DNA of 64,000 nt from assembly GCA_046563655.1 (NCBI GenBank), contig CM102290.1, forward strand, positions 13,888,001-13,952,000, in the 5' to 3' direction. Both the position numbers and the translations under genes were made by a program. Shown here one piece after another: positions 1-37,400 of this stretch (within the stretch, counting starts at the first letter, position 1; the number at the start of each line of letters is the position of its first letter). The notes beneath the pieces are model-generated. The model worked only from the letters and a program-made list of their open reading frames with translations. It did no database searches and had not been told where the DNA came from. Source of the stretch: Yuukianura sp. NJ FZ-2021. Taxonomy: Eukaryota.

Positions 1-333
1 AAAGAGAGGAGCCTTAAGGTACATGCTACAGTATGTTGATCATCATTGTCTAAATTATGGTGCGGTGGGGCTGGGTGGGAAGTGGTTGATAGAACATAAA
101 GCATGTGGCAGTACATGTGCCCCACGGTTTCATGCACATGGAGGTTGAATCCATTGGCAGCCGACAGTTGGCAGAAGACTTGAAACATAAAATAAGGCAG
201 AGTTTTCAAAGGAAATGAGTTCCATTTCATGATTCCGAGTCCTTGTGGAGGGAAGCGTGAAACCAGGCAGAGCGTTTTGCTTGAAGAAAGAAGCCTTAGA
301 ACTTAAAGTTGAAAATGAATGTAAGGGCCTTAC

Positions 334-518
334 TCTTTCATTGACTTTGACGGCCCTGTCGGAGAAGACAATGGCTTTGCAGTACGTGTGTGACAGACTC
401 GGAACACGACGAACTGCAGTGCCGCCCTGGAAAATTTGAATGTTTTCTCCATGGACAGAGTGGAACCGAAGGGGTGAAAGGTTTGAATCTCCCGCTTTCT
501 CGTCCTGCCCAACTCCGC
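334..518 (-). CDS. neur: neuralized coding exon 2 (start of NHR1 domain)
   Basis: 185 nt, canonical AG/GT boundaries, NHR signature residues. Confidence 0.88.
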
Positions 519-2241
519 CTGTCAAGTTTCAAAAAATAAGTTAAACAGGAGTAAAAACAGAATTTTTTACCCCCTCTAAAATGCTTTTTAAACTCCGAGA
601 AGATTTGAGAGTTTGAAAGTAAATTGCGTTTACATATGGTTTTGGATTTGAGTTTTTAAGTACAGAAAATGAATGGGAATAATACATCGTGCTATCTACT
701 AACAGATCCTGGGAACCGGCAGTTTTTGAACTCCTTCATTTCAAGTTTTACTAAACTTTCCGTTTCCTGGTTCCAAGCTGTACTGTGTATCAACATGGGT
801 ACAAGATTTCAAAGTTAAAAGTTGAAAATACAAAAAAGAATACAAAAAGTTGAAAATTTGAATTCGACAAAGAAAGTAACTGTTGGATTCACAGGATTTT
901 TCAAAACGTTCTTGTTATGAAACGATGCAAATTTTAGAAATTTAAATAATTAACAACATCAAAAAAAAAGTTTCTTAAAATTGAACAAAATTTTCGACAG
1001 AAGAGGCAAAAGTCAAAAGAAAAACTGTATCAAAAACAATAAATTTGACACAAAAATAAATTTGATTGTTAATGGCATGGAGGTATGACAAAAAAAAATT
1101 CTAAAAATTTTGTCATTAATTTTTCCGAAAACTGCAAACATCAAACGATTTGTACTTTAAAAGTTCAGAAGCCTAAAATTTAGTCACTGTAACTTTTGCA
1201 TTTGTGTTACGTTAACTAAACCAAAATTCAATCTTTTTGAAAACTTTTCAAAATTTTCATAGTCAAATTTTTAAATAGTTTTAACAGTTTAGTGTTGGCG
1301 ATACAGGAAGCATTGTGAGAGGGAACACAGGACTACGGTTTTTTTCTTTTCCGTTGGTGTGAAAGCAGAAGTTAACGGAAAGAGTGAACTCTAACCTAAA
1401 CATTTTCCTTCCTTTTGCTTTGCTTTTAAATTTTGAATTTTTTTGAAATGTGGCTGAGGGCAAAGGGGATGATGGTTTCCGTAGAGCCTTGTGCTTAAAG
1501 CAGAATAAGAAATTGGTTCTAGTTCGTGATTCCTTCCATGAGAAACCCACCACCGTTGCCACCGGAAACAGGACTTCACAGGCCCACTTCCAGTCATAAA
1601 CGGCTCTAAAAAACACAAACCATCCCTCTAGGTTCCTTCAGGCCAAAAGACTCCCAGTTTCCGCCCAACCTACAAAATGTGTCACATCGCTGCTCATCCC
1701 CCCGTTTCTCACAGGAAACAGCGATTTTTAAGGGCTCCCCTACCCTTACTTCAGCAAACGTTGAAAAATTCTGAAAAATTTGAAAATTTGTCTTACCAAT
1801 TCCAATTTTGCTTTGGATTTTCTTGATGGCTTTGACATTGGAGATCCATGGAGCACAAGTTGGCGTGGGGGTTGACACATTATCGGAGTGGACGCGTGTC
1901 GGTTGAAGTGGACCAGGAGAACACTGATTCAAAGCAGGACTGATTTCCTCAGCATCCAAACAATAGGAGTTGAGTGTAGCCAGAGCATTGGCATGAACTT
2001 GAAGATGATGCGAAGGCATGGACAGAGGACGCGGAATCTTGGGGCGCTGAATTCCGGGCACCGAGGCGTTGCGTCGCTGCGTCCCACCGGTGGAGTTGAC
2101 ATAGTGGATTGGGTGGCTCATTGGCCAGGAACGTGGGAGCAGGACGCCCATGGTGCTGTCTTCAGAGCTGCAGGGTGAAGGTTGACCTTTGGAGGGGGAT
2201 GAATGCGGGGTGCGTGGGGAGTAGTAAACTGTTGCGGCCAT
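334..2241 (-). CDS. neur: Neuralized-family E3 ubiquitin ligase, 5' part (coding exons 2241-1797 and 518-334); gene continues left of the window
   Basis: Exon 518-334 encodes LRFHSVHGENIQI...YCKAIVFSDRAVKVNER, the start of an NHR (Neuralized homology repeat) domain. Upstream exon starts MAATVYY and ends ATT G|gtaaga, phase-compatible with acceptor ag|GC at 518. Next donor is AGA|gtaagg at 333. Start Met is uncertain (MGVLLPR is an alternative). Confidence 0.85.
1797..2241 (-). CDS. neur: neuralized coding exon 1 (N-terminal low-complexity region ending in a basic motif)
   Basis: 445-nt open frame with GTAAGA donor; phase 1 matches the next exon. Confidence 0.7.
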
Positions 2242-2699
2242 CAAATTGGCACAACTCACAAAAGATGACACACGAGTAGAAATGTCAAAGGTCACAGGCA
2301 CTCAAGAGCTGCTCAAACGGCGTTCCTTCCCAGAAAGCGTCTCTGTTGCAAAAATGGTTGACTGTGACTTGGGTTGGGGAGAAAGCAGAGGAGAGAGGTG
2401 CTGTCGGGTGCCCAACTTTTTTTAAACTGTGAATGAAACTGTTCAACTCCACACGGTAGAAGGGAGAAGCAGTGTAAAATGGGCAGATGATGCAGCTGTA
2501 AAGGGGGATTCAGCAAAAAGCCCTGGCAGTCGCGTCCTACATCCATTTACACGCCCCTTGGAATTACACATTAAATTTCAAATTTTTTAAATTTTGAGAG
2601 TTTTTGATAAAAAAAAACTCATTAACAAATTTCAGCAAGCAAGGGCTTCGTACAAAAAATTAAACAGTATCTGATTAAAGCAAAATTTTCAGCATCGAT

Positions 2700-3010
2700 T
2701 AGCATTAACATTAGCAAGGGGTACTGGATTAGAAGTTATCTCATCAAATTAAAATTTTAGGTATCCCTGATAGCGTATAAGAGATATCCCTGATATCCCT
2801 GAGATATCCCTGATATCTCATTAAGTTGAAATCTTAGGTATTCCTGAAAGCGTGTCTCATTAAGTTGAAATTTTAGGTATTCTTTTGAGTTAGCAGTGTC
2901 ATGAAGACGAAATTTTAGGTATTTCTGGGAGTTAGCGTATTTTATCGAGGCGAAATTTGAGGTACTCCAATGGATTTGCAGTATCTCATCACGGGGAAAT
3001 TTTAGGTACT
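2700..3010. repeat. Degenerate minisatellite of roughly 36-39 bp (core aaattttaggtat...tctcat)
   Basis: About 7 diverged copies of gaaattttaggtat plus internal gatatccctga repeats. Confidence 0.75.
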
Positions 3011-3264
3011 CGTTTTTAAAGAATTTTGCATATTTTTTTCTAAGTTTTGGAAGCGTCTCCTATCCATTTTAAAACTTGTTGAGTGGATGTGTGTCGCAGA
3101 CTGTCGTTTGCTCTGAAAAGGGCATATGGATGTATTGGATTTGTGCAAGCCGGGTATGGATGGATCCCTTGTGCACAACCGGCTTTGGTTGAATTGGAGA
3201 ATAATGGAGGGGAACAATGGGTCTGAAAGAATTAAAGGGAAGGAGAGGGGGCCCTTTAAAGGGA

Positions 3265-3400
3265 CAGTTGGCACGAGGCCCAGGGTCCCAGGCCAAGTCC
3301 ACTTCCAGGTGTTGGCCACTCCACTGGGGCCCTTAAGGGCCCTGTGGCACGCGTAACCAGAGCGGCATAAGGGCTCTGGCCAGGTCGCGTGGCAGCTGCT
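3265..3400. promoter_or_regulatory. Candidate enhancer upstream of neur with clustered bHLH activator and repressor motifs
   Basis: GC-rich island with CACGAG (3272), CAGGTG (3306), GGCACGCG (3346-3353), CGCGTG (3386) and GCAGCTG (3392). Confidence 0.4.
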
Positions 3401-3840
3401 CCAGCTTAACAACACTTCCGTCTGCTCTCCTCACAAGCAACATCTGAAAATCGAGAACCTGCCTTCCGCTTGCTGAATGCCACATTTCACGACAAAGCAG
3501 CTTCTTACTTTTCAAAAAATGAAAAATCAAGATATGAATCAATTTTTTTGACAATTTTAGTATAAACGCAAGGTTATATTAAAAAGAAAACTGAAATTTT
3601 TCCAGAACAGTTTCTATGACAACAAACGTAAATGTTTTTGTTGACATAATGACGGAAGTCAGGATCAAAATTTTGAATTTTTTTGTCTGTTGAGTTCCTC
3701 CGCTAGCTAGCGGCCGACGAAAGTTGTGCTCTCGCTACTTTCCTGGAAGAAGGTTAGTTGACGTTTTTTGACGCATGACGTCTTTTTTTGACGCATTTGA
3801 TGACACGTCGTTTCTGAATTCTTGCAGATTCGATTTCAAG

Positions 3841-6227
3841 ATGAGCGATTTCAACAACAACAGAAGTGACAATCAGCATCCGTATCCCTTCGCTCCTCCG
3901 CCGTGGAACCGAGGTGAGGTCAATGACCTTGGCTTGAGGTCAACGACCTTGTTTGAGGTCAATGACCTTGGCTTGAGGCCAACGACATTGTTTGAGGTCA
4001 ATGACCTTGATTTGAGGTCAATGACCTCAGCTACTAAATTCGAACTTTTCTGAATTTTATGATTTTCGTTTGGTTTTAGTTGCTGTTGAGAATTATGCGA
4101 TCGGACACAATTTCCTGTTTGAGCATTTGAGACACGGAGATATGAATACATGGGAAATGTTTAACAAAGATGAGGTCATTCCGCTGCCAACGCCTAAGTT
4201 GTCATGGATTCCAATTCGGCTGGACCCTGGTGACAGAGTGTCAACTTTTTTGAAGCCGCTGAAGCTCACTCAATATGTCGTACCGGAAAACTGGCAACCG
4301 AGACGGTTTGCCGGCGTTGCCGGTCTCTGCGGCGGCAAGTTCCGGCACGAACCGAACGGTGGACAGGCATTTGAGAACGCCATGAAAGATATCCGAAGAG
4401 CCTTCATTACGATGCAGTTGGACAAGGGCGCTTGCATCAAGGAGTTCCTTCCGGATGACGTCACTTTCGAAGAAACCTTGGCACTCGGTATACTTTTTCA
4501 CAAATTTCAAATTTAAAAAAAAATTGAAAAGTGTGTTTTTTAAAGGTGATTTCCTGTTTGAGAATCGACACAGACTTCCAGTCCGGCAAAATCCGTTTTG
4601 TCGACCAACGCCAAATTTTTGTGACCCAATCCAAAATTTTCAAATTCCTGAACCCATTCCGGGCATGTGCGGTGTTCCAAATTTTGGGAGTTGTCCAAAT
4701 TTCGCCAGCGGTACAACTCCTATGAGTGGACCAAATTTTGGAAGTGATCCATTTCCAAGCCATTCGAGTGGACCAAATTTTAACAACGGTAATCCAAGTT
4801 TCTCTACTGGTCCATGGCCAGCATCTTCAAGTTGTCCTACTCCGACGAATCATCCAACCTTCGCTGGACAAAATTCATCAACTGGTCCAGGGACAAGTGA
4901 CTCCAGTGGTTCAAATACTGCCAATTTTCAAAGTATCTTTCCTGATCCATGGCCAGTACCACCTTCAAGTTGTCCAAATCCAATGAGTTATCCGAACTTC
5001 TCTGGTCAAAATCCAACTGGTCTAGGCACAAGCCACTCAAGTGGACAAAATGCTGACAGTCTTCCAAGTTTCTCTAATGGGCCATGCCCAGCACCTGCGA
5101 ATTGTCCAGCACCTTCGAATTGTCCAAACATCTCTGGCCAAAATTCATCAACTGGCCAAAATTCACCAACTGGTCAAAATTCATCGATTGGCCAAAATTC
5201 ATCGATTGGTCAAAATTCATCGACTGGTCAAAATTCATCAACTGGCCAAAATTCATCAACTGGCCAAAATTCATCAACTGGTCAAAACTCATCAACTGGC
5301 CCAGATAAAAGTCACTCCAGTGTAGCACATGATGTCATTTTTCACAGTTTGTTTCCTTTTCCATGGGCAGAACCGGCAAGTAGTCCTCGGAGTCGTCCAA
5401 GTTCCTCTGGCCAAAATTCTCCCACTGGTCAGAATTCACCAACTGGTAAAAATTCTCCAATTGGTCAAAATTCACCAACAAGTCAAAAATCATCAATTGG
5501 TAAAAATTCAGAAACTGGTCAAAATTCATCAACTGGGCCAGGTACAAAGAACTCCAGTGGACCAGATACTTCAATTTTTCAAAGTTTCTTTCCTGGTCCA
5601 TGGCCAGTACCTTCGACGAGTCCTCCGATTCGTCCAAACTTCTCTGGACAAAATTCATCAACTGGTCAAAACTCAATACCTGGTCAAAATTCGTCAAGGG
5701 GCCAAGGGCCAACCATCTCCACTGGACAAGATGCTACCAGTTTTCAAAGTATCTTTCCTGGTCCATGGCCGCTACCTTCCAGTAGTCCTCCGCGTCGTCC
5801 AAACTTCTCTGGCCAAAATTCATCCACTGGTCAAAATTCATCAACTGGACAAAATTCATCAACTGGACAAAATTGCCGGAGTGGACCATTCACAAGCGAC
5901 TCCAGGTCTCCAAGGTCTGCAAATCGTGCATGCCCACCTCCCTCGAGTGGCCAGTCTTTTGGAAATCGTCCACCCGATCCAAAACCTTGGAATGGTCTAC
6001 CAGAAGACAAAGAATGGAACGCAGTGCGCAGAACTATCATGTCGATCATGCGCAGACCAGATCCGAAACCGGTATCTTCAGAAACCGAGTCGACGGTTGA
6101 GCCGGATCCGGAACCCGGTCCGAGTAGCGGAATACGGACTCCGTGGTTTCCTAATCCCGACGCAAGTCCGTTCACTCCGCGCATGGCTCAGGTAAGTCCT
6201 GAGGAAGAACCGACAGATCAATGTTAA
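3841..6227 (+). CDS. Uncharacterised protein of about 720 aa (exons 3841-3913, 4080-4487, 4546-6227): putative globular N-terminal region plus long Ser/Gly/Pro/Asn/Gln-rich repeat tail
   Basis: ATG at 3841 follows a probable 5'UTR intron (3753-3827). Two phase-1 GT-AG introns (3914-4079, 4488-4545) join three ORF-track frames into one 2163-nt frame. AATAAA at 6292. No family recognised. Confidence 0.7.
3916..4028. repeat. Intronic tandem array of six 19/20-bp palindromic units (gAGGTCAaTGACCTt)
   Basis: Units start at 3917, 3937, 3956, 3976, 3995 and 4015. Confidence 0.92.
5135..5875 (+). repeat. Coding 18-bp tandem repeats (ggtcaaaattcatcaact = GQNSST) in four blocks
   Basis: Blocks of about 9, 7, 3 and 4 hexapeptide units in the 4455..6227 frame. 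Confidence 0.9.
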
Positions 6228-6983
6228 AAACTCTTTATTTGAACACAAGTTTCTAGCCGAAGCAAATTAATCATGATTCATGATTGGTGTAAATAAATTT
6301 AAAATTTAAGTTTACAACTAATCCAACGCTGGTCCTACACTTTTTCAAAGCTAAAAATTCAATTAAAAAAAAACAACAACCTTCACATTTGTACGAAATC
6401 AGTGGCCACATGACACCACTGCATCAGTTGTCCACTCAACCCTCAAAAAGCAAATTTTCAAAAAGTCAAATTTTCAAAAATCCAAATTTTCAAAAATTTT
6501 CAATTTTTGTTGAAGAGAAACTTCAAGTGTCTCCATTTTGTCGCTCCCTAGTTAAATTTCACTGGTTTCTTTTAACTTTTTTTAACTAAACAACACAGAG
6601 TATGAAAGGCTAAAATTAAAACAGTTTGTACACGTATTAAAGTCTCAGTTGGAGACTGAAATTGGGGTTAGCTGCCAGGAAGAGCAATGTTAGCCTTGAG
6701 GTCACTCAAGGTCAACAGGTCAACTTGACCTAGGTCAAGTTCAGGGTTAATACAAAATATCAAGTTATGAGAGATTACGCAGAACCAGTCGCCTTTCCAC
6801 ACTAAAGAACAAGTACTTTATAATATTTCGGAGTTGATTATAATATCTTTCCTTTGGGGAGCTAACTCATAGACTTAGCAGTCAATGTGCTGCCAAGTAT
6901 CGAACAAAGTAACCAAATGCTTAGAAAATACTTGGCATCAAAAGGGAGTCTGTACAGACATGTAACTTTTAGAGTGTACTGGG

Positions 6984-7158
6984 GGTAGCACGCCATAGCG
7001 TCGAATGAAATGTTCCGAAGTCAATTACTTCGAATGAATTGCTATGAAACCAATTGCTCCGAAAGACAAGTCGGGCGTTCGGAACAATATGGCATTGAAT
7101 AATTGAATTCGTAGGAATTCGCTTCGGAGAAATTCATTCGGAGAAATGGCATGGAACC
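6984..7158. mobile_element. MITE with internal attgctccgaa/ttcggagcaat sub-repeats; relatives at about 18765-19092, 32300-32385 and 62060-62220
   Basis: Imperfect inverted arms ggtagcacgccat...atggcatggaacc; flanks gtactggg/gtacaggg match at 7 of 8 positions. Confidence 0.65.
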
Positions 7159-7241
7159 GTACAGGGAGTATTTAGAGTTTAGTTACAGTTGGGAGATTAA
7201 GTTTAAAATAGTTAGAAATAAATTAGAGATTAGGAAGAGTT

Positions 7242-7468
7242 CTAGTAACACTTCTTGGAGCAAGCACATTTCTTAATTATTTCAACATCTTTGGTATAAC
7301 TTGTACCGTCGTTACAAATTAGTCTGACTCGACGACGGCGAGAACGTTTTGGAGTGCAGCAAGTTTCACCACAACTCCCCACACAGGCTGCAATCTTGAG
7401 TGGCCTCCTCGACCGACACCCATGTTCTGTGTAGTAGTCTTTATACTGCTCCTTTTTACAAGTGGGGG
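7242..7468 (-). CDS. slit: slit exon 33 (cystine knot, stop codon)
   Basis: 227 nt, [12 protein letters not shown]...[10 protein letters not shown]...[10 protein letters not shown] then TAG. Confidence 0.94.
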
Positions 7469-10400
7469 CTAAAAATTTTGAAATTTTTTGAAAACTTTGA
7501 AATTCTGTTTAAAATTTGAGGAAATGTTAAAATTTTGATTACCTAAATCACAAAAACGGCCCCCGAAACCTCCGGTACACTTACACTCGTAGTCCTTCCT
7601 GGATTTGGAGGGAATGCACCTTCCGTTTTTGCAACGCGAGTCTTTGCAAACGTCTTTGGGTTCTCGCGGGTTAACTTTTGTGGTGAACGTGGATTGCACT
7701 TGCGCAGCAGTTGCGGAAGTTTCTTTTTCTATTGGTTCCTCGTCCTGGATGCTAGCACAGCCAGGCTGGACACCTTGTCTTCTCTTGGCATTTACAAAGT
7801 CTACTCGCTTCTGGTTAATGTACACAAGGCTCAAACATCCTGGTAGCAATAGATAAAAAAAAGTTCATAATTTTGGAAAATCATGTTGGTTTTGAAGTAA
7901 TTTGAATGATTTGAAGTATGGAATTTTGAAATTTCACCGTGAAAGGAAGTACTGTTTCGTAGGTGCCAGAGGTTGAGGGCAGTCGCCGCAGCACTCGACG
8001 GCAACCCGCCAATGTACAGTGGCGTAGTCAACTTGAGCGAGTCCTTGTCTCCATCGTTGATGATACTTCGAGCTTTCCCGCCATTTACTCGCATTGTAAA
8101 GTTTTTCTTATTGGCAAGCAACTCGATTGTGTGCTCTTCTCCGTCAGCTATCATCTCGTAGCTGAAATAAAACACAAGTATCCAGTATAAATATGTAAAT
8201 TAGAATGTAAATAATAAATGGAAACTAACCTGTACATGGTCGAAGAGGGATAATTCCCAACGTCGTAACTAATTCGAACTCTACCAAGGAATAGTTCAAC
8301 AGCGATATGCTGGGATTCTCCATTGTAGAGGATAATACCGTTGAGCTCCGTCGTGGACAGGACGAGCGTAATGTTCGTGTCAGGTTTGGTTCTAAGTGGT
8401 TCCAGCTCTACCCAGGAACCATTGCTCCCGATGCTGATGCTCGACAAGGTCTCGCAGCGTTTCCCTACATGTCAAACCAGACTAGTTTAGTACTTTGACA
8501 TCAAAGAATTAGCAGGAGTGAGACTTTTTTGGCCAAACGCTTACCAGACCACCCCGACTGACATTTGCACATGTAATCAGCTGAGTCTGGCGGAAGGAAA
8601 CAGAAACCATGGGCACAGTCATTGTCTTGACAGGGTGAAGTCTTTGGATACAACATGGATACACTCGGAGCCACTTCACAGTACCGCCCAGCAAACTCCT
8701 CAGTGCACTGGCAAGTGTAGTCATTGACTCCATCAACGCAGGTTCCGCCATTCTATAAAACAGAAACATGTCAGATCAAGGTCATCATCAGTATCCAATG
8801 TACAGTTCTAATTGTGTATCTGTTACCTGACACATGTGACTGACACAGTCATCAATGTTAGTGCTGCAGTTAAACCCAGTGTATCCTGGTAAGCAATTGC
8901 AGGTATAATGTGAAAAGTGGTCCAAACACTTTGCTCCATTTCGGCAGGGGTTGTATTCTCTACTGCAAAATGGAATCTTCTTCTCACAGTACTCTCCTGA
9001 AAGTAACAAACATAAAACGATTAATTGACGATTAATAACAACGGAAATAATGGTTTGTTCCAATCAATACCGATGAAATTTAAAAAAAAATTCAGCAAAA
9101 GTGAAAAACAAACGAAAGTTTCCTCCCCCGATCCGAAAAACTTTCTCCGAAAAACTTTCCCCGGTCCAGTTTGAAACTTTCAAGAAATTTTCTTTCAAAA
9201 TTCAAAGGGAGAAAAAAAATTTCCAAAAAAATTCAATTTTTTTTAACACGGATGACCAGTTTTACTGAATAAATTTAGGTTTAGTTTACCCTAAATCCTC
9301 GCATATACCGCACGCGGACCAGTAGTTTTTGGCGTTCGAGAAGAAAGACAAAATAAAATTATCGGTGCAAGTAAAGAAAACTTTTGAATTCTTAAGGCAA
9401 TATCGTCACATGTCTTAAAACATCGAAGGTAGTAAAAGTTGGTGCGGTATATGCCAGGATTTATGGTAAATTGCTTTAATTTGCGTTAATTTCTACCTTG
9501 GAATCCCGATTGGCAGTCACATCTGTATTTTCCAACCAGATCAACGCAGGTCGAGTTGTTCTCACATTTGTGTCGCAGACAGTCGTTTTCGTTCTGTTCA
9601 CACCGATGACCAAGGTACCCCTTGGGGCAAGTGCAGCTACAAGGTCATCAAAATCATCTTTGCTATAACTTTTCTCTAAACTTTTAATTTTAAAAATCTC
9701 TGAAAGTTGTACCTAAAGCGTCCTTCTTCCAGGACTTTACAAATTCCGCCATTAGTGCAAGGTTGTCCATAGCAAGCGTCGATGACTTGCTCACAATGGC
9801 GTCCTGCTCATACCAACACAAGTCAAGGTTAAATTACAGCAGCCAAAAAAGAAAACAGGGTCAGTGACCTCGGATATTTTGACCTTTACCGTGATATCCC
9901 GGAGCGCACTGACATTGGTAGTCCTTCCTAGGCATTGGCAAGCAAGAGGCTCCATTTGAACAGGGGAACTTAAAGCAGGAGTCGCATTTGGCTCTGACGG
10001 TGGCTGGAATGTTTTCTGGAAAGACGTCAAAGTGTCCATGAAGATCCATCAGTCATGCAATTCATTTCAATCAATATCTAATCCTGCCCGACCGCATTAA
10101 CGTGGCCAGAATACTCGTCAGGCTTTATAAGCAGGGATGTCAAAAATATGTTCTAAAAACACTCGAAATATTGACAAAAAAATATTTTGTAAAAAGCGGC
10201 CAAATATTTACTTAGTTTAACTTTAGGGGCATAGGCAAACAAATAAATATTTAACAGTAAAAACCTGGCAAATTTTTTTTGTTAACATTACGGGCATGGA
10301 GACTAAATATGTTTGACATCCGTGCTTATAAGGGAAAGAACAAAAGAGGAAGATGGGCGTATGGAGATTAAGGTTTGTGCTCAATTGTGTATTCCATACC

Positions 10401-13400
10401 CGTGCATTCGAAGTCTCCAGGAGGACTTGTGAGCAAGAGTTTATTTTTCATGGATTCCGGTTCGCTACATCTTGCAATTCCAGGCTCCAGAAAGTCACGT
10501 TTAACCCAGTCAGCGAGCCATTTGAGTCCGCAGTCACAAAATAAAGGATTTCCACCCAGTGCTCTACCGGATAAAAAAAAACGAACAAAAAAAAACGGAA
10601 ATGAAATCATTCACGGGCTTTTGATTTGACGGGGCACAACAAACAGAGGTGTGCTTCAATTCAATTCGTCGAAACAGGCTAATTAGTCACTCACAAATGC
10701 GTGATGGAACGAAGGTCACGGAATGTCCCTTCTGGAATCTGAGAGATGTCATTGGCATGAACGGATCTGCAAGAAAAACCGTAGCAGGTCAATAGTACGA
10801 AAACAATAAGGGCGAAAACAATAAGGCGCGAAAATAATTCGCCAAGTTGGCAACAACGGAGTTAAATAACGTTGGGTTTCTTAGGCGAACTTGACGTTAG
10901 ATTCTTCCAAAGATGTGGGTTTCATTGGTGGTACAGCAGTGTTGCCAAGTCACTGATTTCGCGCTTATTGTTTTCGCGGAAATTGTTTTAGCATTAATGA
11001 ACTGGAATCGAAAAACAAGTCGAATATTTTGTCGATTTTTTCTCACAAAAAAAACTTACAGGATTCTGAGCGATGACAATCCGACCAAAGCGTCTCTCTC
11101 AATGCACTGCAACTTGTTGTAGCTGATGATTCTAGAGAGAAACAAAGACAAAACGGCTTGAGGTCAAAGGTCATTGACTAAAAAGTACTCAAAACAAGTG
11201 AAAAAACTTACAGTGTGGACAACTTGGTGAGATTCACAAAAGTGTGATTTGACAGCATCGTAATTTGATTATTGCTCAAGTCCCTGCGAGAGAACAAAGG
11301 AAAAGAGAAAGTTTTTAAATTCGCTTTCACTTCCTCCACACGCCTCTAAACTTTTTCTTTTTCTCTTTTCTTTTTTGTACAAAAGTTTAATAACATTTGT
11401 GTTTTCTGATGAGATATTGTTTTCTTTCGCATGTTTGGAGCTTGTTCAAGTTTCCCTCCAAAAAAAATGGCGGACTATAGGGATTTATAGACTCACAGTT
11501 TGGTGAGATGCTTGAGATGACCCAGCCGACTCACGTCAATCGCTTCAACTTCATTCACATCCAAGTAAAGTTCAGAAGTTTCACTCGGAATGCCGCTGGG
11601 AATCTCCCTCAGTCGAGCACGACTACACCAAACGACCGTGCCAGTGCAGTTGCACTGTGGTGGACAGTATTCTTCCCCCAAGCAACCACGGTCTTCACCT
11701 AAAAGCACCACAAATGGTCAAAAGGTCACTTGAAGAAGCCGGTCCAGGTCAAAATGTCACTCGAAAAGTTGGTCCAGCTCAAAAGGTCACTTGAAAGCAT
11801 GGGTCCTGTGGTGTTTGCTCCATCCTCCCAGAGTTTAGAGAATGGGAATGATAGCTCAAGGGTTAGCGCTCTTCCCGGATTGAAGAGACGTGGGTTCGAA
11901 CCTCACCCGGTTCATTCTTTTTTCTACACTCTCTTTCCTTGTCTCTCAAGCCATTTGAGTCCAGAACGAGTCCAGGTCAAAAGGTCACTTGAAAATGACT
12001 TACTTGTGCACCGAAATTCATGTGAGGGGAGACTTCTGATACGAGAATCTTTGTGTCTTAGGGGTGCATGGCACTTGGGTCCATCTGATGGCAGGAGAGC
12101 GTGTTCCCTTCGAAGCCAATCTGCGAACCAGGCCAAGTGACAGTTGCATATGAATGCATTTCCATCCAGATCCCTGTGAACAAATCCATCATCAGACAAT
12201 AAAGATCAGTTAGACGCAGGGAGGGGGCCCTTCGTCACCTGCCTCCCTTGGTTCTATTGACTCTTTTAATTTAAACTGTTCCCAGTGACTAACTATGACA
12301 AGCCAACCATTTTTGGACTGTGGCATATGTTTCTCAACGGAAAATGACAATGTAAACATATCTTTTCCAATGTTCCCGCCAACTTTTGAGTATTCCAAAA
12401 ATTTGTTCCAGGAAGAATATTCCTGCTTCTTCTGTTACTCAGGCGTATCGATCCTCTCTTTTTTTAAGTTTTGAGAGTCTAAAAAAATAATTTTGTAGGC
12501 CACTTTTCCTTCCGGTTTTTTCTTCCAGAATTTTTTTTCCAGAAATTAAAATGTAGAGCAGATTGTGGAAGATGTTTTTGAGCCTGGAGGTTCTGAGTTT
12601 GATGGTTAATTTCCTGGCGGTGGTGGTGATGTGGTTTCTGTTGACAAGGGTCCATTGTCCACAGAAACCAAGGTTCTCATGCCAGTGAAAGGAGAAAGTT
12701 TCGAGTGCGCAGACGCCGCAGTTCTTTGTTGCCAATTCCTCGAGGTGTTTTTCAAGTCACGACGACGACGGAGAAAGTAAATAAATTGGATTTCTCCCCG
12801 TCTCAATTATTTTATGGTCTTCGGCCCCGAAAACCAAGTTTCATTTAAAAGGAAACGCACAACACTTTAATTGAATTCAAAATTACACAAGTGCTGGAGA
12901 AGCATAAAGTAAAAGTTTTCTGCCAAATTCAATTTTGGAATAAAAATATGAGCGACTTTTTTAGTTTAAAAAGTTTCGGTTCGCGTCTGGTCTTGCAATT
13001 AAAAAACAATAAATCCGGTTGTAAAAGGGAGTGTACAAAAGTAGCGAAAGATACTCACGGCTAGTCATACCGGCCCAGTATGATGAGCCACGCTAGACTA
13101 TTAGCCGACATGCCAAAAATATTTTCGCAAAATTGGCTAAATCTTTAAATATTCAATATTTTTTCCAGAAACCTTGAAATAGTTACGTATTTAACATTGG
13201 GCAAATAAGGGCATGCGCAAATAAAAAAAATGAGAAAATATTTTTGTCATGTCTGACTATTAGTTATAAACGGTAAAAGGCAAAAGTTGACCTTTGACCT
13301 ACAGGGCCAATGATGTACACAAAAGTTGTTTGCCTCAATGAGAAAGACAACTTTTGTATAGGCCATCTATCATGTTACCGTGTAAGAAACCCATTGACCT

Positions 13401-16400
13401 TGACTCTTGACCCTGCAGAATTTGACACAAAAAGATGATATTCAATAGTGAAAGCAGATCTGGGAAATGTTTAGCGGTTTATGAGATAAGTCTCCGGCGG
13501 TCGGACGGACAGACAGACAAGGTAAAACCAGTAAGTAGCTTACGCTACTTAATAACTTTTTTGTATGTACTAGACAAGTCTATTTAACTTTACAAGTCAA
13601 AACAGACTTTCGCTCTACTTTTATTCTCCAGATTTTTTTTGTGTCTATTTAAAAACAAAAAGTTTTCTCATTCTAAAAGTCTCCTTGGGCATAATTGGTG
13701 AGAGGATGCCAAAAGACTGGAGAAGAACAAGGTTCAATTTGAGCACGCTTGTCACTCACCCGCCCTTTTGACATTCACCGACCACCGTCGCTTGCGGGCA
13801 ACTCAGGAACTCCGCCTCTCTCGAGATCACTCCCAAATTATAATTTTAGAACTTGAGTCGTTAGTTGCACAAAATCAGAGATCTCTTGTGTCTTGGTGCA
13901 TCGGATGATTAAAAACGTAAAAGGCTCTACCTTGTCACTCACATCCTCATTAATCATATTATTCATCAAAAGACTTCCACATCAAGTCAAACTGCCAACT
14001 TTTCACTTCCATCATTACATCTCTCATGTCCAAATCGCTCATAGTGAACTTTCCAAGCCAAAATTTTCAAAAACAAAAGTTGTCTGTTCAAATCAGTTAA
14101 AAAGTCAAATGTTTTGATGTAACCCTTGGGGGCAAGGTTCCTTGACAACGAAAGATGGATTTTCTTTAACAGGTTGAGTACTACCTCAATTCAATAAAAA
14201 ATTGACTAAGATATTATGAAATGATCTACAGCCTTTTTTTTGCAAAATCGAAAAAACCATGAGGTATTACTCAACCTGTTAAAGAAAATCAACGTCAACA
14301 AACCTTGCTTTGGAGGTGAATGAGAAGAGTAGCAACAGGCAATGGACAGATTGTGACAGAAGAGGTCACTTTTGACACTGACGCCTCAACCTGACAAAAT
14401 ATCTCCTGGAGACATCACTAAGTTGTGAGACTTGTCAATATTTGTCAAAGTGTTGGAACAGAGATGAGGGTCAGTTGATTAAAACTAAAGTTGCTCAAGG
14501 CAACACCAAAATCTAAAAGTTTCTTGTTTTTTTGAAAAAATTGACTTACAGAGATTGAAGACTCGGCAAATGCTCAAAGGAGCCGGGCATTATACATGAA
14601 ATTTGGTTGTCCGCCAAAGATCTGCAAGATAAAAGAGAGAAAATGAAATTTTTGATAAAATGCCTGTCAGATTTGGGATTGGCAGGTTTTAACTTCATCA
14701 GAAGCATTGTGCTCCATTTAGTTTTGGACAATTGGACAGAAGAGAAGACTTGTTTTGAAAAGTCAATTTGAAATTGGATTGAGGAGTGGAGTAATCAGCA
14801 CTTACAAAGTTTTGAGCTGACTGAGTCCAATGAACATCTTGTTATTTATCTCCTTGAGCTTATTTCCCGTGAGGATTCTGGAAGGAAAGCCACAAGAGAA
14901 AGTTAGTCATTCACTCTTTCCCTTTCTTTGGAGCCCAGTCCAGCGGAAGTGAGCTCTGGAAGCTCATCTTCGCACTTTCACTTTTCAATCTCTCACTTCC
15001 AAGCGTTTCAGCGCTCCAGCGTTTCCAGCAACTTGGAACAAAGGAAAGTTTGAGCGGTTTATCACGCTAATCTCATCCGAAATGGACCACGCTACAACTA
15101 AACATCCGCACTTCCACAAGCGAAGGTAGACAAAGTTCTTGCGGTTTACGCCTACTTCCAGACCAAATCAACAAAATTTCAGGTCCGTTGGGTTTTCACT
15201 TTGTACGAGACTGGACTAGCAGCAGGAAATTCATTTTCAGTTTCTACACCCGTAGAAATTGATTCGAACACAAAAAAAGGAAATTGATAGGAATGATTTT
15301 TCAAAACGTGTGTTTTTGTTCGAGCGAGCTAACAATACAGTATTTCCTCTCAAATTGCAACTCGTTTTCTCGTTTTAATAGGCGCTTGCCATACACTTTT
15401 TAATAAGCAGGGATGTCAAAAATATTATGTCTCCAGCAAAAAAAAAAACAGTTTGTTTACTAAATATTTATTTGTTTGCCCACGCCCACAATATTAAACC
15501 AGCAAATATTTGGGCAATTTTATTTATTTGTTTTAATTATTTATTTATGATAAATTTAAATATTTCTGGCGTTTTTAACACATATTTTTGACATCCCTGC
15601 TTATAAGGCTGCAGTTTGTTGTTTAAGCTAAAAAAAAATGTTAGTTTTAAAATTAAAAAAATTGGCGCAAAATGTTAGTTTTTAGGGAAAAAATATCCTG
15701 GGTTCAGTTTTTGTTTGACATTTTGAACCCGCAAGTTTTGAAAAACATTTCTTTTGTTGTGGATTTCTTGGCAAACTTTTTTTGCTCATCTTTTTATCAA
15801 AACACAAGTTCAGTGCCACAACACTGAAAAAACTAAAAGGCCTATTCTTGATCACTGTTCCCTCCCGCCTTCGTCTCCAATCAACATCCAAGGTTCCTTC
15901 TCCTTTAAAGCAAATTTACTTTAATCTCACAAACAAGTTCTTTGTAAAAAGGAAAATTTACTGTTTCAAGATGAATCTTTTAGAAGATGGAATCTTGAGT
16001 TGTGAAACTTTAATTCTAAGCTCCTTAGAAGCCCCATCTTCCCATCATGGCATCTCTTCTATTGTTCTTCATGCACTTCACTCTCCCTTCATTTACGCGT
16101 CACTTTTCCTCATCACAAAGACTCAAAACGCTTTGAAAAACGTCTTGTACTACACTTTTGTAGAACATCAAAGTAAAAACTTACACGTCCACAAGGGAGT
16201 TGGCGTCTCGAAACGAGTTGTCCTCAATGGCCGAAATCCGATTTCCACTCAAGTCCAACTTTTGAAGATTTGGAAACAAATGGACCCAACCAGTACGAAG
16301 TCGCGTCAGTTCATTTCCTGAGAGAATTCTGAACAAAATTTACAAAAAAAAAGTCATTTTATTTTTACAAGAAACTATTTTTTTGAAATTCCTTCAAAAA

Positions 16401-19400
16401 TGGGTTCAGAGTTAGTCTGATTTTCCGCAGTTCCAAGTTCCAATTATTTTTTTAGACTCCAATAAAACGGGTGAAAGGGTTTCTGAAATTTTGAAAAACT
16501 TTTTTTTTCAGTGGGAAGTTATTTGGAACAGCGTCTAAAGAATTTTAAACCATTCTCTCCATTTTCACGCCTGTCATTATAATTGGATTTTCCCCCTTGC
16601 TCTCTCTCTCCGCAACTCTGTGAGAGTTCAAGGAATTAAAAACTTTTATAGTTACTCCCTCTGATCGCATGTTAAGTCCAGAAGTGGGCCCTTACAAGTG
16701 TGTCACGTGCTCTGGAATGTCTTCCGGAATTTCCCGAAGTCCACTTCGGGAACAGTCGACACTTGTACCCTCACAAGTACATTCTGCTGGACACTTTAGT
16801 TCTGCACATTCATCTGTCCATGTCTTACTCTCTTCTCCGTCACCTAAAAAACGTTTTTGGAAGGAGAAATTCTAAAATTTGTTAAAATTTAAAAATTTTC
16901 AATTTTATAACGGGGATGCTATCGGTAGGGGTGTGTATCCGTCACCGCTTTCTAGAAAACCGGATTTTGGATTTTGACGGATTAATCCGGATTTAAATCC
17001 GGATTTCTTAATACATAGGATTTCTCATAAGAATTTTTCTAGTTTTTTCAAAATTATGTACAACAACGGTTTCAAACTCCAAGTATAATAAAATTGATAA
17101 CGGATTTCAGGAATATTTTTGATTAACCTGATTTAAGAAACAATTTCTTAACTCAGTGGTACGATTTTCGATGGCAATTTTGCAATTTTCCATACCACGA
17201 AATGGAACAAAAAATCTGTCAAATCCGGACTCCATTTTTTTGAAATCCGGATTTGTAAGAATCCGAATACGTGAAAAAACCGGAACAAAAATCCGGATTC
17301 ACCACTAACTATGTGTTTAAGTGGACATGGAGTTGGTCAAGTTTCATACATTTCATCTTCTCTTCCCGGAATGCTGCGAGTCTCTTCCGCTGCAGCCTCT
17401 TTGGTCCTTCACACTTAGCTCCCGATGTCTCAATTGGATTTCTGTGGAGGTAGTCCGACAGCCATCGCAGGCGACAGTCACAGAAAAATGGATTCCGAGC
17501 CAAATGACTGCAAATTTAAAAAAACACGGGAGTTATTCGGAATTCGGAAGAATTGTGTTTCGGAAAATTAAGCTCGAACTCTCTGCTTCCTCTTTCTATT
17601 AAGTATGATTTATTCATGAAGCTGCGAGGCGTACTTCCGACACGGAACCTGACACGACTATGGCGAGGCAACAGCAGTTCCTAATCCATTTACACAAATA
17701 TGGTTCTGATTATTGTAAAGACGAGGAAGTCAGTCCCAATTAGGACTTGGTTCATCCAAAGCCGAGCTGTCCAACGTCATTAGTGTCACACTTTTTGGTC
17801 CCACCACCATCAGTCGTCACAGACTCAGAGTCATTTCGTATTAAAGTAACAAAGGGACCATGAGCCCTTATTTTCTCAAGTCATTCCTTCCCCGTGGATC
17901 TCCAACCTTCATCCCTGCACATGATTGCACAAGATTCAAACTGGTCTTGAAGACAGTGTTGTAGAAATTTTTGAGAATTTTTTTTTCATTTCACTGAGAA
18001 AAACTGAGATAAACTGAAAAATTGAAAAGAATTGAAAAAAAAGTGAGATGAACTGAAAATATTTTTCATCTATGTTTTTTTCATTTCACTGAAACAGAAT
18101 AAAGAAGCTAAAAATATGTTTATTTCATCGGATGTATTTTTCAGTTTTTTGTTAATTTTTCACTGAAAAGTGAAATAATTTGAAATCTAACACTGTTTGA
18201 AAAATATCATGGTCATTGGTTTTGGTTCGTTTGACTTTTTCTGAGACAACATGGACACGATGGCCCTTGAGCAAACTGATACAAGGTCCTTGAAACCATC
18301 AAGTCCACTTTTTGTTATACCAGGAATATCAGTTTTCAAAAAAAAAATTTTGAAAAGAAATTTGTAACATTCCAGAAACAGGAAAATATGAAGGTCCCAA
18401 GCTTTTTGTATTGAAATATGACGCCACACCGACACCACGAATTTAACACCCCGTGGCGTCCAAACTGTTTTTTTTTCTATTCTTGGTCTTTTGGGTTCAA
18501 CTTGTTCAGAAACCTGCAAAATTCGGTTTCATTTTCTGGGAAGGATGAAAAAAGCGGGTAATTGGAAATTTAGAGAATTCGGGTAGTTTGGCTTTTCGAA
18601 ATCCCGCGGGAAGATGTTGGGCTTTCTCATTCCTCTGCAAAAACCATTTGCAAAAACCAAAAAAACTTTTTTTGCTTGCCTTATTGCAATACTGATACTT
18701 TCAAATTTAAAAGTTTGAGTTTCTGTGGGGCCTTATGAAATTTAAGTGTTCAGGGTTCAGGACGGTTGCAAGCCAATGTGTCGAATGAAATTCTCCGAAA
18801 CAAATTGCTACTGATGAAATGCTCCGAAACAAACTTCTCCTAATCAACTTCTACGAAATCAATTCCTCTGAAATGTACATTGCTCCGAAATTGAATTAGT
18901 CTACATTAGGGTGTAAGTTAAGTTAAAAATCGTGAGGAAAGGTTTGCTAGGCTAACAATCATAAGATTACATTATAGTATGAGTTGTAAGTCAGTATGCT
19001 AGGTCAGGTAAGCATTTAAAACTATTTTCGGAGCAATTCAATTCTTAGCAATTGAATTCGGAGAAATTCGTTCGGAACAATGGCCAGGGACAGTAGAATC
19101 TCAAGCAGATCTCTGTGGAAAGTGAAATTGCATTGGGTTTGGAATTCTCGTCTGGTTTTTATGCTGGTCTTGGATTGACATAAAAAAATGAAATACTACA
19201 ACGTAAAATGACGCATGAAAATTGGATTTGGAGAGGAGAAGAGAGAAGGGCGAGGGCGCGGTGGTTGTAAAGTTCTCAAGTTATTGTTGACGGCGACTTA
19301 GAAACGGACGGGGAAAGAAACTGTAGTGAGGAATTGGAGCTTAGGGAGACTTCTTAGATTTGGGTTTCGTTTGGCTCAAAGTTGGCGACAGGTTGAGGAC

Positions 19401-34400: not shown

Positions 34401-37400
34401 GGATATCCACTTTTTTAGTATTTCGTGCAGGTTATATCCACTGGATAAATAGATAAATCCGGATAAAATCCAGCTTCCGATGGACGAAATTGAGTTTCGT
34501 CCGGAAGAAACCAATAAAATCCGGATATATCCAGCACTTTCGAGGAGAGTGGAAGAAATATTTTATCCATCCAGCAACACTGATGGTGAACCATAATAGG
34601 AGTTCACAGACAGACAGACAGACAGACAAAGTCAAACTATAAACTAGCTTCACCAAGTTAATAAAAATAAGTAGACTTGTCTTTTGCCTAAATGGATTCC
34701 CAAGGGCCACTCCCCTTTGACCCTAGCCTTTAATGACTCTTCAATAAAATGCCAAGCAATATACAAAAAAACACAGCTTAAGCACTGACAAACTACCAGT
34801 ATTCTAGCTTCGTATAAAATCTTCAATTCCCTTTGCATATCCATTCAAATTTTTTTTTTAAATCAAAAGAAAAAGAGGGTGTGACCCTAGGAGGCAATTT
34901 CAAAATTTTTACAAACGTTGTTTCCATTTCATTCATTTCGGAAGTTTCAAGTTTTCCAGATCCGCCACTTTCGTTCTCAAAATTTTTTTATACCCGTGTT
35001 TTTTTTTCTTTTTTTCAGTTCGTTTCGTACATCCCAAAATGCATGCAACTTCAAAAGAGAAGGAAATTGAACTTTTAAAAACTTAGAAAATGAGTTTACA
35101 AGCTTTCATTTTTTCTGGAACAAGTCAAGCACGAGCTTTAAAAAAAAGTGTGAAGCTTTTTGCATTTCCTCTGGAAATTAAGTCCCACTTAACGATACAG
35201 TGTGTCCCACACCAACTTGACAGCAAATCGCCATGTTCAACGTTGAACTTGAGATTTGACTGGCAGATGGAACATTTACATTCTGTGAAAAAACGAATGC
35301 AAATGATACAGAAAAGACAGGCATGAAGAGACTAGTGCTTGCCTGGCACTTTCAAAAGTCAAAGGAGTGGCAGTGAAGGCGGTAAAATCCAAAAGCCAAA
35401 AAATTAAAAAAAAAGTTTTAGAACTTTTGTTTAGAAAAAAAAACGAGCTGCAGTCCAAAGATGGTTGAATAAAAGGAAGTTTTTATGGAAGTGAGTGGAT
35501 GGTTTTTAAGTCGCAAAGTAACAAAATGTAAGCGGACTGTCATGAAAAATAACAACGTAGAAGAGACTGCATAATAATATAATAAAATGGTAATGCATGC
35601 ATGATTTCTTACAACAGTCAAGTGTTTTAAGGTGTTGTGTGAACATGTCAAAGTACACAGGAAAAAAAAGTAAAAGCAAATTTTCAGTTTTAAAAGTTGC
35701 CAAAAAATGAAGAGTGTTTGGCGTGGCAAGATTGGCTAAAGGGCTGAAGACGTGCAATTACAAGGCTCTTGTTTAAAACAATTGTACGGAGAATGATGAA
35801 TGATGATTTGGGGAATATTGAATGAGTTGCGCAGTAGTAATTAGAAGAATAGGTTCTACAATGGAGGTCTAAAGACTCATGGTTAAAGGTAGGCGGCAAC
35901 TAATAAGTCATTTTTGGTTGGCAGTGAGCATCCTTAAGCTACTTTTTGCATTAACCACAACAATTGATCACGATTTGCACGTCATGATAATAATACTGGT
36001 TTTTGCATTTCAGAATCTTGTTCAATAACGATGAAAAAAAACTTCGAATTTGCTTTTCCAGCATTCGAGCGAATTCATTTATTAATTCGGATCCATTTGA
36101 ATTGGATTTATTAAGGAAAAAGCTACTTTATCGTTTGACCTTGTCTGTCTGTCTGTCTGGCCGTCCGCAGCAATTGTGTCGGAAATGCTTGTTTCAGGTC
36201 AAAGGTCAACTTTTTTTTTATTTTTAGTCATTATGGTTAATTAGTTCGTTATCATTAGTCATGATTCGCCGGTGTGAACCACCGTTCGCTAATGCAGCGA
36301 ATATCTTTCGCTACTTTTGTACTTTTGATTTAATTTAAAACTGTTTTTTTTTACATTCACTTTGTTCCTGAACTACTTCTTGAGCACGTTTAGTTCCAGA
36401 ATGAGAAAATCAAAAATATGAAAAATCAGTCAGAAACTGTAGTTTTGCAACAGGTTCTGAAAAAATTATAGAATCTTGTAGTGACGATTTGAAAAAATGC
36501 AAGAGTTTTAAATTTCGTTGATTTTTTTGAGATAAGCTTAAATGAATTAATGCAACACCCAACCAGTGTTTACTTTTGTGTTTCTGGACACCGCTGGTGC
36601 CGATGGTGGGGGTTTGAGCAATCAATTTCCCCAAGAAGTCAAAGTCCTTATCGGACCTAAGCTCTCCACCATAGGAATGCATGGAGAAAGCCTTCTTACA
36701 TAATTCTCCCATTGTAATGTCCAGATCCTATCTAGCACAGACCCACCCACGCCACCATGGCATTTGTAGTGACCAACTTTATGTAAGACATCACGGCAGA
36801 GGCAGTTCCACACAAATCCAGAAACATGGCTCTGCACGCGCTTCACTTGAAACGTCGCTTCGGATTACTGCGCCTCTCTTTTCTTTTGTTTCCTTCTCCC
36901 AAGTATTCTCAGCCCATAAAGACGGGAAGGGGGCAGGAGTCGTTTAGAGTTCTGTGCCCTTATCGGGTCAACTTCTATTTACATTAGGACAAGTAAACAA
37001 ACACGGACAAACTAACTGCGTCCCAAACTAAGTTTAAGGGCCCCCTAACTGTAGGGGGCCCTTCAACCCCCACAAACTTGGACAATCTTTCTGTCACGAC
37101 TACATTCGACCCCAGAGCCAATCCGTGTCATAACTCCCTTCTCGTACTAATTTCCTTAACAAAAACATTTCAAAATTTCGAAAACAATTTCAACCGAAAA
37201 AGTAGAAGCTACGAGAACAGAAAAATTTCACGTCATTAAATTGAAATCAAAGATTTTTTCTTCTATCGTAGCAATATTTCCTCCACGATTAGAATTTAGA
37301 AGAAAAGACAAACAAAATTAGTTTTTTTTTGAAATATTTTTTTTTTTTGAATTTTTGATTTTTTGGAAAACTTACAGTTTGTTGAGGTTTGGGCTGTTGG

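Follow-up and report, generated by a model that had tools for sequence, protein, structure and literature searches.

A copy-number-variable array of IR1-type palindromes in a putative intron of a springtail orphan gene is probably a minisatellite

Does a row of perfect nuclear-receptor sites inside an intron mark a hormone-responsive enhancer, or can the ordinary growth of a repeat produce the same picture? The question is raised by a 64,000-nucleotide stretch of the genome of Yuukianura sp. NJ FZ-2021 (contig CM102290.1, positions 13,888,001 to 13,952,000), which we call the window and in whose own numbering all positions are given. Near its left end, six palindromes built from the half-site AGGTCA stand head to tail in the putative first intron of an orphan gene. 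The original prediction, made from the letters of this stretch, proposed that they form a natural steroid-response multimer that drives the orphan gene and possibly a divergent neuralized-like gene, and offered a neutral palindromic minisatellite as the fallback. Our analysis favours the fallback. The array is probably a young, copy-number-variable and slippage-prone intronic minisatellite, a local case of a habit of this genome to form AGGTCA micro-repeats, with no dedicated hormone function. It is real and visually striking, and it is ordinary in kind.

The sequence itself, pattern searches and Tandem Repeats Finder (TRF) agree that positions 3915-4027 are a tandem array of six units of 19/20 bp, in which a 13-bp palindrome, AGGTCAATGACCT, alternates with a T/G spacer of 6-7 bp. 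The 13-mers start at 3917, 3937, 3956, 3976, 3995 and 4015, at spacings of 20/19/20/19/20, and carry 0, 1, 0, 3, 0 and 0 mismatches to AGGTCAATGACCT, so that the count of four perfect and two variant units, and their positions, were as predicted. Unit 1 (3917-3929, perfect) overlaps the predicted 5′ splice site (G/GTGAGGTCA, the slash marking the junction) and is followed by the spacer TGGCTTG; unit 2 (3937-3949) reads AGGTCAACGACCT, with its single mismatch, and is followed by TGTTTG. The same two spacers follow unit 3 (3956-3968, perfect, TGGCTTG) and the degenerate unit 4 (3976-3988, AGGCCAACGACAT, three mismatches, TGTTTG). Unit 5 (3995-4007) is perfect, with the spacer TGATTTG, and the perfect unit 6 (4015-4027) is the last, giving way to 52 nt of ordinary intron tail. 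Two unit types thus alternate to make a 39-bp higher-order repeat, which TRF reports as a period of 39 with 2.9 copies, 90% matches and a score of 191, besides a period of 20 with 5.8 copies. Matches to AGGTCAATGACCT with at most one mismatch number 7 in the window; 100 dinucleotide shuffles averaged 0.15 and never reached 7, and this excludes a chance origin of the array; an 18-mer unit searched with up to three mismatches was found six times, every time inside the array, against 0.09 expected.

By its build the array belongs to two classes at once. Its units are inverted AGGTCA-like half-sites around a 1-bp spacer (inverted repeat with one spacer base, IR1), in four cases perfectly, in one with a single mismatch and in one with three; and the units are head-to-tail copies with a period in the 10-100 bp range, which describes a minisatellite. 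Three of the units read CCAAGGTCA or TCAAGGTCA (YCAAGGTCA) on the bottom strand, the latter being the form of unit 5, and this we take to be the extended half-site of FTZ-F1/SF-1/ERR. The original prediction also called the unit the ideal IR1 of EcR/USP and FXR/RXR, which is right to the letter: the structural report gives the same sequence for the IR1 of the FXR/RXR crystal oligonucleotide (PMC10242635). Its description of the array as phased, with units about two helical turns apart, holds only approximately. The spacings are correct, but at 10.5 bp per turn their mean of 19.6 bp corresponds to 1.87 turns, which rotates neighbouring sites by about 48 degrees and does not keep them strictly on one helix face. 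Between the higher-order copies, differences occur at 3 of 52 palindrome positions and at 2 of 20 spacer positions; in this small sample the palindromes do not appear more constrained than the spacers.

The setting of the array suggests how it may have come about. The putative exon 1 of the orphan gene (3841-3913, plus strand) begins with an ATG at 3841 and holds 24 codons and one base of a frame that is open over 3772-4053. A predicted donor, cgaG/GTGAGG (GT at 3914), and a predicted acceptor, ttggttttAG/T (AG ending at 4079), would bound a phase-1 intron of 166 nt (3914-4079), and the putative exons 1 and 2 join in frame across it. The splice signals and the frame are consistent with the intron of the original prediction, although the array does not fill it: it takes up 112 of the 166 nt, starting only 2 nt past exon 1. 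What is left without the array is 54 nt, close to the 58 nt of the putative intron 2 (4488-4545, plus strand, with an alternative in-frame acceptor between 4581 and 4582), so that the array gives the impression of having expanded within an intron of minimal size. Donors within the array (AG/GTCAAT) were rejected as productive splice sites, since none keeps the phase of exon 2 and each has C at +3.

The rest of the orphan gene is unusual in its own way. The putative exon 2 (4080-4487, plus strand, 136 codons) has no Pfam family and no credible homologue. None was found among proteins of 238-2000 residues, and a search of 1.84 billion representatives gave two matches with E of about 1e-4; the gene's own product was not among the results, so that close relatives of the animal may be absent from the proteins searched. 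Both were dismissed as spurious: they are fibronectin-III repeat proteins with 24-29% identity over about 59 residues, and the matches recur across their repeats. We propose that the gene is lineage-restricted. Its putative exon 3 (4546-6227, plus strand) stays open to 6227 and consists of low-complexity, G/Q/N/S/T/P-rich coding repeats, whose tandem periods over 4796-5874 (18, 36, 54, 135, 165 and 237 nt, with GQNSST-like units) are all multiples of 3, which argues for coding. Pfam returned a weak match of these repeats to Cementoin, a transglutaminase-substrate family (31.9 bits against a cut-off of 27, with no single stretch passing). Upstream of the ATG by 50-80 nt lie four TGACG motifs on the plus strand (3759-3793), at 3759, 3769, 3776 and 3789 and in the forms TTGACGT, TTGACGCA, ATGACGTC and TTGACGCA, which are possibly promoter-proximal sites. 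An acceptor-like ttcttgcag stands about 12 nt before the ATG at 3841, so a further 5′ exon may exist.

Comparison between relatives carries much of the argument. Four sequencing sources (X1, X2, X5 and X6) were aligned to positions 3300-4700. The contig of organism B (X5, 805 letters) joins 3951 to 3993 with ATC between them, skipping 41 nt and putting in 3; elsewhere it departs from the window at 12 letters over 3300-3951 and at 1 over 3993-4083, an identity of about 98%. It thus lacks one 39-bp period, namely units 3 and 4, which both lie inside the missing 3952-3992, and retains four units, three of them perfect. Over 3919-4425, a soil-metagenome contig (X6, 492 letters) differs at 9 letters and has a further 20 gap letters, which makes it about one unit shorter. 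The number of units in three sources about 2% apart is accordingly 6, 4 and about 5. Copy number that differs between close relatives is what a minisatellite shows; a constrained EcR/USP response element should instead display a stable number of sites and a core better kept than its spacers, and neither was seen here, the core comparison being the small sample given above. The unit also occurs elsewhere. Among 18 listed of 46 loose contig ends, 11 sit at array positions 3915-4028 (in X1, X2 and X5) and run on into sequence unlike the window, which places the array unit at other loci. As a separate observation from this alignment, window position 3742 is C, where every X1, X2 and X5 contig that covers it has T; this may be a difference from these sources or an assembly error.

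The half-site itself is common throughout the window. AGGTCA/TGACCT occurs 71 times, 62 of them outside the array, where 100 dinucleotide shuffles gave an expectation of 30.6 and 47 at most; ranked by z-score, it is the 11th most over-used hexamer, the first being ATCCGG. Outside the array there are ten perfect paired sites, which, with direct and everted repeats abbreviated DR and ER and the number of spacer bases appended, comprise four DR1, two DR2 and one each of IR1 (the sole one, at 44364), IR3, ER0 and DR4, where shuffling predicts 0.00-0.01 per type and at most 0.05 in all. These pairs are scattered across the window irrespective of gene, so that a perfect AGGTCA pair is of little predictive value in this genome. 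The locus specificity expected of an EcR/USP response element is thereby absent, given the ten other perfect pairs and the occurrence of the unit on contigs whose flanks differ. An identical 19-mer, AGGTCAAAGGTCAACTTTT, is found in three of the four DR1 and suggests that they arose by copying and not by selection of each on its own. The original prediction had named a scattered high-copy repeat family, unrelated to hormone-responsive genes, as the finding that would tell against it, and the contigs with unrelated flanks, the perfect pairs throughout the window and the variable copy number largely amount to one.

Several of these AGGTCA sites merit a description of their own. The copies of AGGTCAAAGGTCAACTTTT, each a perfect DR1 with a common tail, lie at 13282-13300 (minus strand), 36196-36214 (plus strand) and 45513-45531 (plus strand); at 36196 and 45513 the downstream sequence is also alike, ahead of a T-rich tract ending in TTTTAG. 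A second AGGTCA micro-array at 6699-6737 packs five half-sites into 39 bp, as a DR4, a DR2, an inverted pair (IR3-like) and an everted pair (ER0). It is situated about 470 bp past the stop codon of the orphan gene, between the 3′ ends of this gene and of a slit-like gene. A further AGGTCA micro-array is found at 11716-11796.

Taken together, we consider it probable that a minisatellite expanded inside a first intron that would otherwise be minimal (about 54 nt), in a gene restricted to its lineage. It would have grown and shrunk by replication slippage or unequal exchange, helped by palindromic units that fold back on themselves when single-stranded. The single-strand DNA fold of the array is predicted at -29.5 kcal/mol (z -6.5), and since self-complementary units let a single strand fold back, slippage is plausible and an effect on splicing is conceivable. 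Nothing in the sequence indicates that the array was built or is kept as a hormone enhancer for the orphan gene. Several points nevertheless weigh against this reading. Four of the six units match the best known IR1 site in every letter, and an enhancer could sensibly be expected in a first intron, within about 100-200 bp of the start codon and presumably near the promoter. Each of the three sources covering the locus retains 4-6 units and in none is the array lost, although this says little at a divergence of only about 2%. Depth summed over X1 contigs, which speaks for the unit at other loci, reaches 472, 345 and 661 in the three bins of the array, with 155 in the upstream flank and 218 in the downstream one; such sums are no copy numbers, however, and depth is also raised over 3488-3722 and 4287-4474. 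Finally, the excess of AGGTCA could itself reflect widespread receptor binding, and the neutrality of the array cannot be shown by sequence alone.

How much of this a working enhancer could account for has to be weighed with some care. Under this alternative, EcR/USP would act on the IR1 units to give the orphan gene, and possibly the neuralized-like gene, a response to moulting hormone; in a variant of it, monomeric receptors of the FTZ-F1/ERR type would use the YCAAGGTCA words on the bottom strand of three units, as we identify them. In either case the number of units would set how strong the response is. Position close to the start codon in a first intron fits such a role, and a Q/N/S/T-rich protein with a weak Cementoin match would, speculatively, suit a cross-linked structural protein made at moults. 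The identity of the unit with the IR1 of the FXR/RXR crystal speaks for it as well, as does the binding of IR1 by Drosophila EcR with RXR, as described in that report (PMC10242635), and standard ecdysone reporters are driven by multiple copies of an ecdysone response element (EcRE), according to another (PMC7953021). Because the unit happens to equal the ideal IR1, EcR/USP-type receptors would probably bind it in vitro. Against a function in the animal stand the copy-number differences between sources about 98% identical, palindromes not conserved beyond the level of the spacers, ten more perfect AGGTCA pairs in the same 64 kb irrespective of gene, and a 19.6-bp spacing that fails to hold the sites on one helical face. 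We therefore regard the enhancer as unlikely, and the dedicated steroid-response multimer of the original prediction, for which we found no support of its own, as unsupported yet not refuted. A broader form, in which the array would be an enhancer in a lineage-specific layer of control, has this soil arthropod amplifying exact IR1, DR1 and DR2 sites by micro-repeat expansion, mainly in and around tiny introns, with 4/5/6-copy variation tuning the moulting-hormone response of young, lineage-restricted genes; this we hold to be quite unlikely.

The remaining alternatives concern the origin of the array or its effects on RNA and protein. The array might be a remnant of, or have been seeded by, the sub-terminal repeats of a miniature inverted-repeat transposable element (MITE) or other DNA transposon that has since lost its ends, transposition being followed by local expansion. 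Metagenome contigs searched for two neighbouring units lend this idea some substance. The search gave 18 stretches, of which the array part alone aligns to the window, so that they do not derive from this organism; three of the contigs have a G+C content of 0.58-0.67. In the assembly JAAUYA01, five contigs carry the unit AGGTCAAYGACCTTGTTTCA within a common element. In two of these sequences (L008 1431-1709 and L010 1433-1695) this nearly identical unit matches window 3917-3962 with 87% identity over 47 nt, and the element is MITE-like, about 265-280 bp long (some 270 bp), with the IR1 units internal and 35-37-nt terminal inverted repeats at its ends that are 91-92% complementary. The presence of the unit on contigs with other flanks would also agree with a mobile origin. 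At the window array itself, however, neither a terminal inverted repeat nor a target-site duplication was found, the flanks have no copy in the self-comparison of the window, and the exon is only 2 nt away; within the window the array thus has none of the shared flanks, terminal repeats and duplications of a dispersed mobile element. A 24-mer adjoining the terminal repeat of the metagenome element does not occur in the window even when up to 3 mismatches are allowed, the element comes from a possibly unrelated organism, and ARAGORN revealed no tRNA or SINE (short interspersed nuclear element) carrier near the array, the only tRNA being a tRNA-Cys at 46300-46372. A mobile origin is accordingly very unlikely in our estimation. 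The recurrence of the unit pattern in 18 otherwise unrelated metagenome stretches means that such arrays arise and spread as plain repeats, and that they do so repeatedly, at least once on a MITE-like carrier. A role at the RNA level is highly improbable. Folding of the pre-mRNA could shorten the effective intron, mask the donor or yield a tailed mirtron or other hairpin small RNA, and the predicted fold of 3900-4095 is indeed strong (-74 kcal/mol, z -6.8, with 0 of 200 shuffles folding as well), its first hairpin starting at the donor and pairing intron positions +2 to +9. But units that are self-complementary by construction fold in this way in any palindromic repeat, so the fold is no evidence of function, and a masked donor would be a disadvantage, not a function. 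Rfam had 0 matches at gathering score over 1-12000; over 3700-4300, with E up to 1, it gave only two mir-192 matches below threshold (23.5 and 18.8 bits, where 54 is the gathering score). These were set aside as hairpin noise, leaving no known microRNA family. It is exceedingly improbable, finally, that the intron is wholly or partly retained and the repeat translated as (EVNDLGLRxTTLF)n. The frame of exon 1 does stay open through the array to 4053, and the 39-bp period is divisible by 3, but read-through stops after 71 residues and does not share the frame of exon 2, chance alone would leave one frame in three open, no AG/GT within the array keeps the phase of exon 2, and the variants that differ by about 20 nt in copy number would break the frame.

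Among the neighbouring genes, the divergent neuralized-like gene is where the original prediction had put it, about 1.7 kb away. Its putative first exon (1797-2241, minus strand, within a minus-strand open reading frame at 1606-2301) would begin with an ATG at about 2241, some 1.68 kb from the array; the next exon, 133-528, holds a Neuralized domain (PF07177, E 4.7e-8), and protein-family comparison of the neuralized exon supports the family name. Downstream of the orphan gene and convergent with it lies the slit-like gene, which has EGF, laminin-G and cystine-knot domains. The window contains other repeats as well. A tRNA-like stretch at about 11845-11915 has GGTCCAGGTCAAAAGGTCACTTGAAA repeats on either side (within 11716-11987) and is 78% identical over 105 nt to the tRNA-Cys(GCA) region at 46300-46372 on the minus strand (within 46264-46372); it may be a tRNA-derived dispersed element. 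A pair of dispersed repeats, 13282-13555 and 40305-40598, shows 66% identity over 300 nt, and both copies have motifs of the TGACCTTTGACC(T/C) type, in the parts 13260-13420 and 40290-40450. ATCCGG/CCGGAT, the most over-represented hexamer of the window (53 observed, 12.2 expected), stands in short palindromic tandems of AAATCCGGATTT, for instance at 16984-17006 and 39388-39415, and is a second palindromic word of this genome. An 11-bp satellite, AACATTGGCAC, is repeated in 45 copies with 90% matches at 39556-40054.

The locus teaches that perfection and multiplicity of a motif are alone no sign of regulation where the background is rich in AGGTCA. With natural alleles of 4, 5 and 6 units, the array is also a small and clean test case for the reading of AGGTCA pairs by receptors. 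If such pairs are read, repeat expansion would be a fast route to hormone control of new genes; if they are not, this genome is a negative control for motif-based enhancer prediction. In literature searches on AGGTCA in springtails (Collembola) and on AGGTCA palindromes of EcR/USP, none of the papers listed seemed pertinent by title and abstract opening; a search for a collembolan ecdysone response element found nothing, one for minisatellites with nuclear receptor half-sites returned a general review only, and these searches thus gave no report of AGGTCA arrays in springtail genomes.

Set beside known systems, the array has partial likenesses to several. Its perfect units have the same sequence, AGGTCAATGACCT, as the idealised IR1 element of EcR/USP and FXR/RXR (PMC10242635), but here the site is part of a variable intronic tandem repeat in a genome with many perfect AGGTCA pairs. 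With the multimerised EcRE reporters it shares several tandem response elements near a promoter (PMC7953021); the reporters are engineered, upstream and proven active, whereas the array is natural, intronic and irregular (four perfect units and two variants) and a candidate at the level of sequence. The MITE-like element of L008 and L010 has nearly the 20-bp unit of the array, the TTGTTT spacer included, but it is bounded by its 35-37-nt terminal inverted repeats and the window array has no such ends. Alu repeats have spread retinoic acid response elements of the consensus DR2 type in primates, only some of which were shown to recruit receptors (PMC1785376). In both cases consensus AGGTCA-type pairs have been multiplied by repeat dynamics to far more than chance would give; the Alu DR2 sites are dispersed singly on a defined SINE, whereas the array is of the IR1 type and in tandem, with no carrier element found in the window. 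In its head-to-tail units of 10-100 bp, its higher-order period, its non-coding nature and its copy number that varies between relatives, the array resembles intronic variable-number tandem repeats, from the ordinary run of which it differs by its perfect transcription-factor palindrome and by the wider excess of the AGGTCA word around it.

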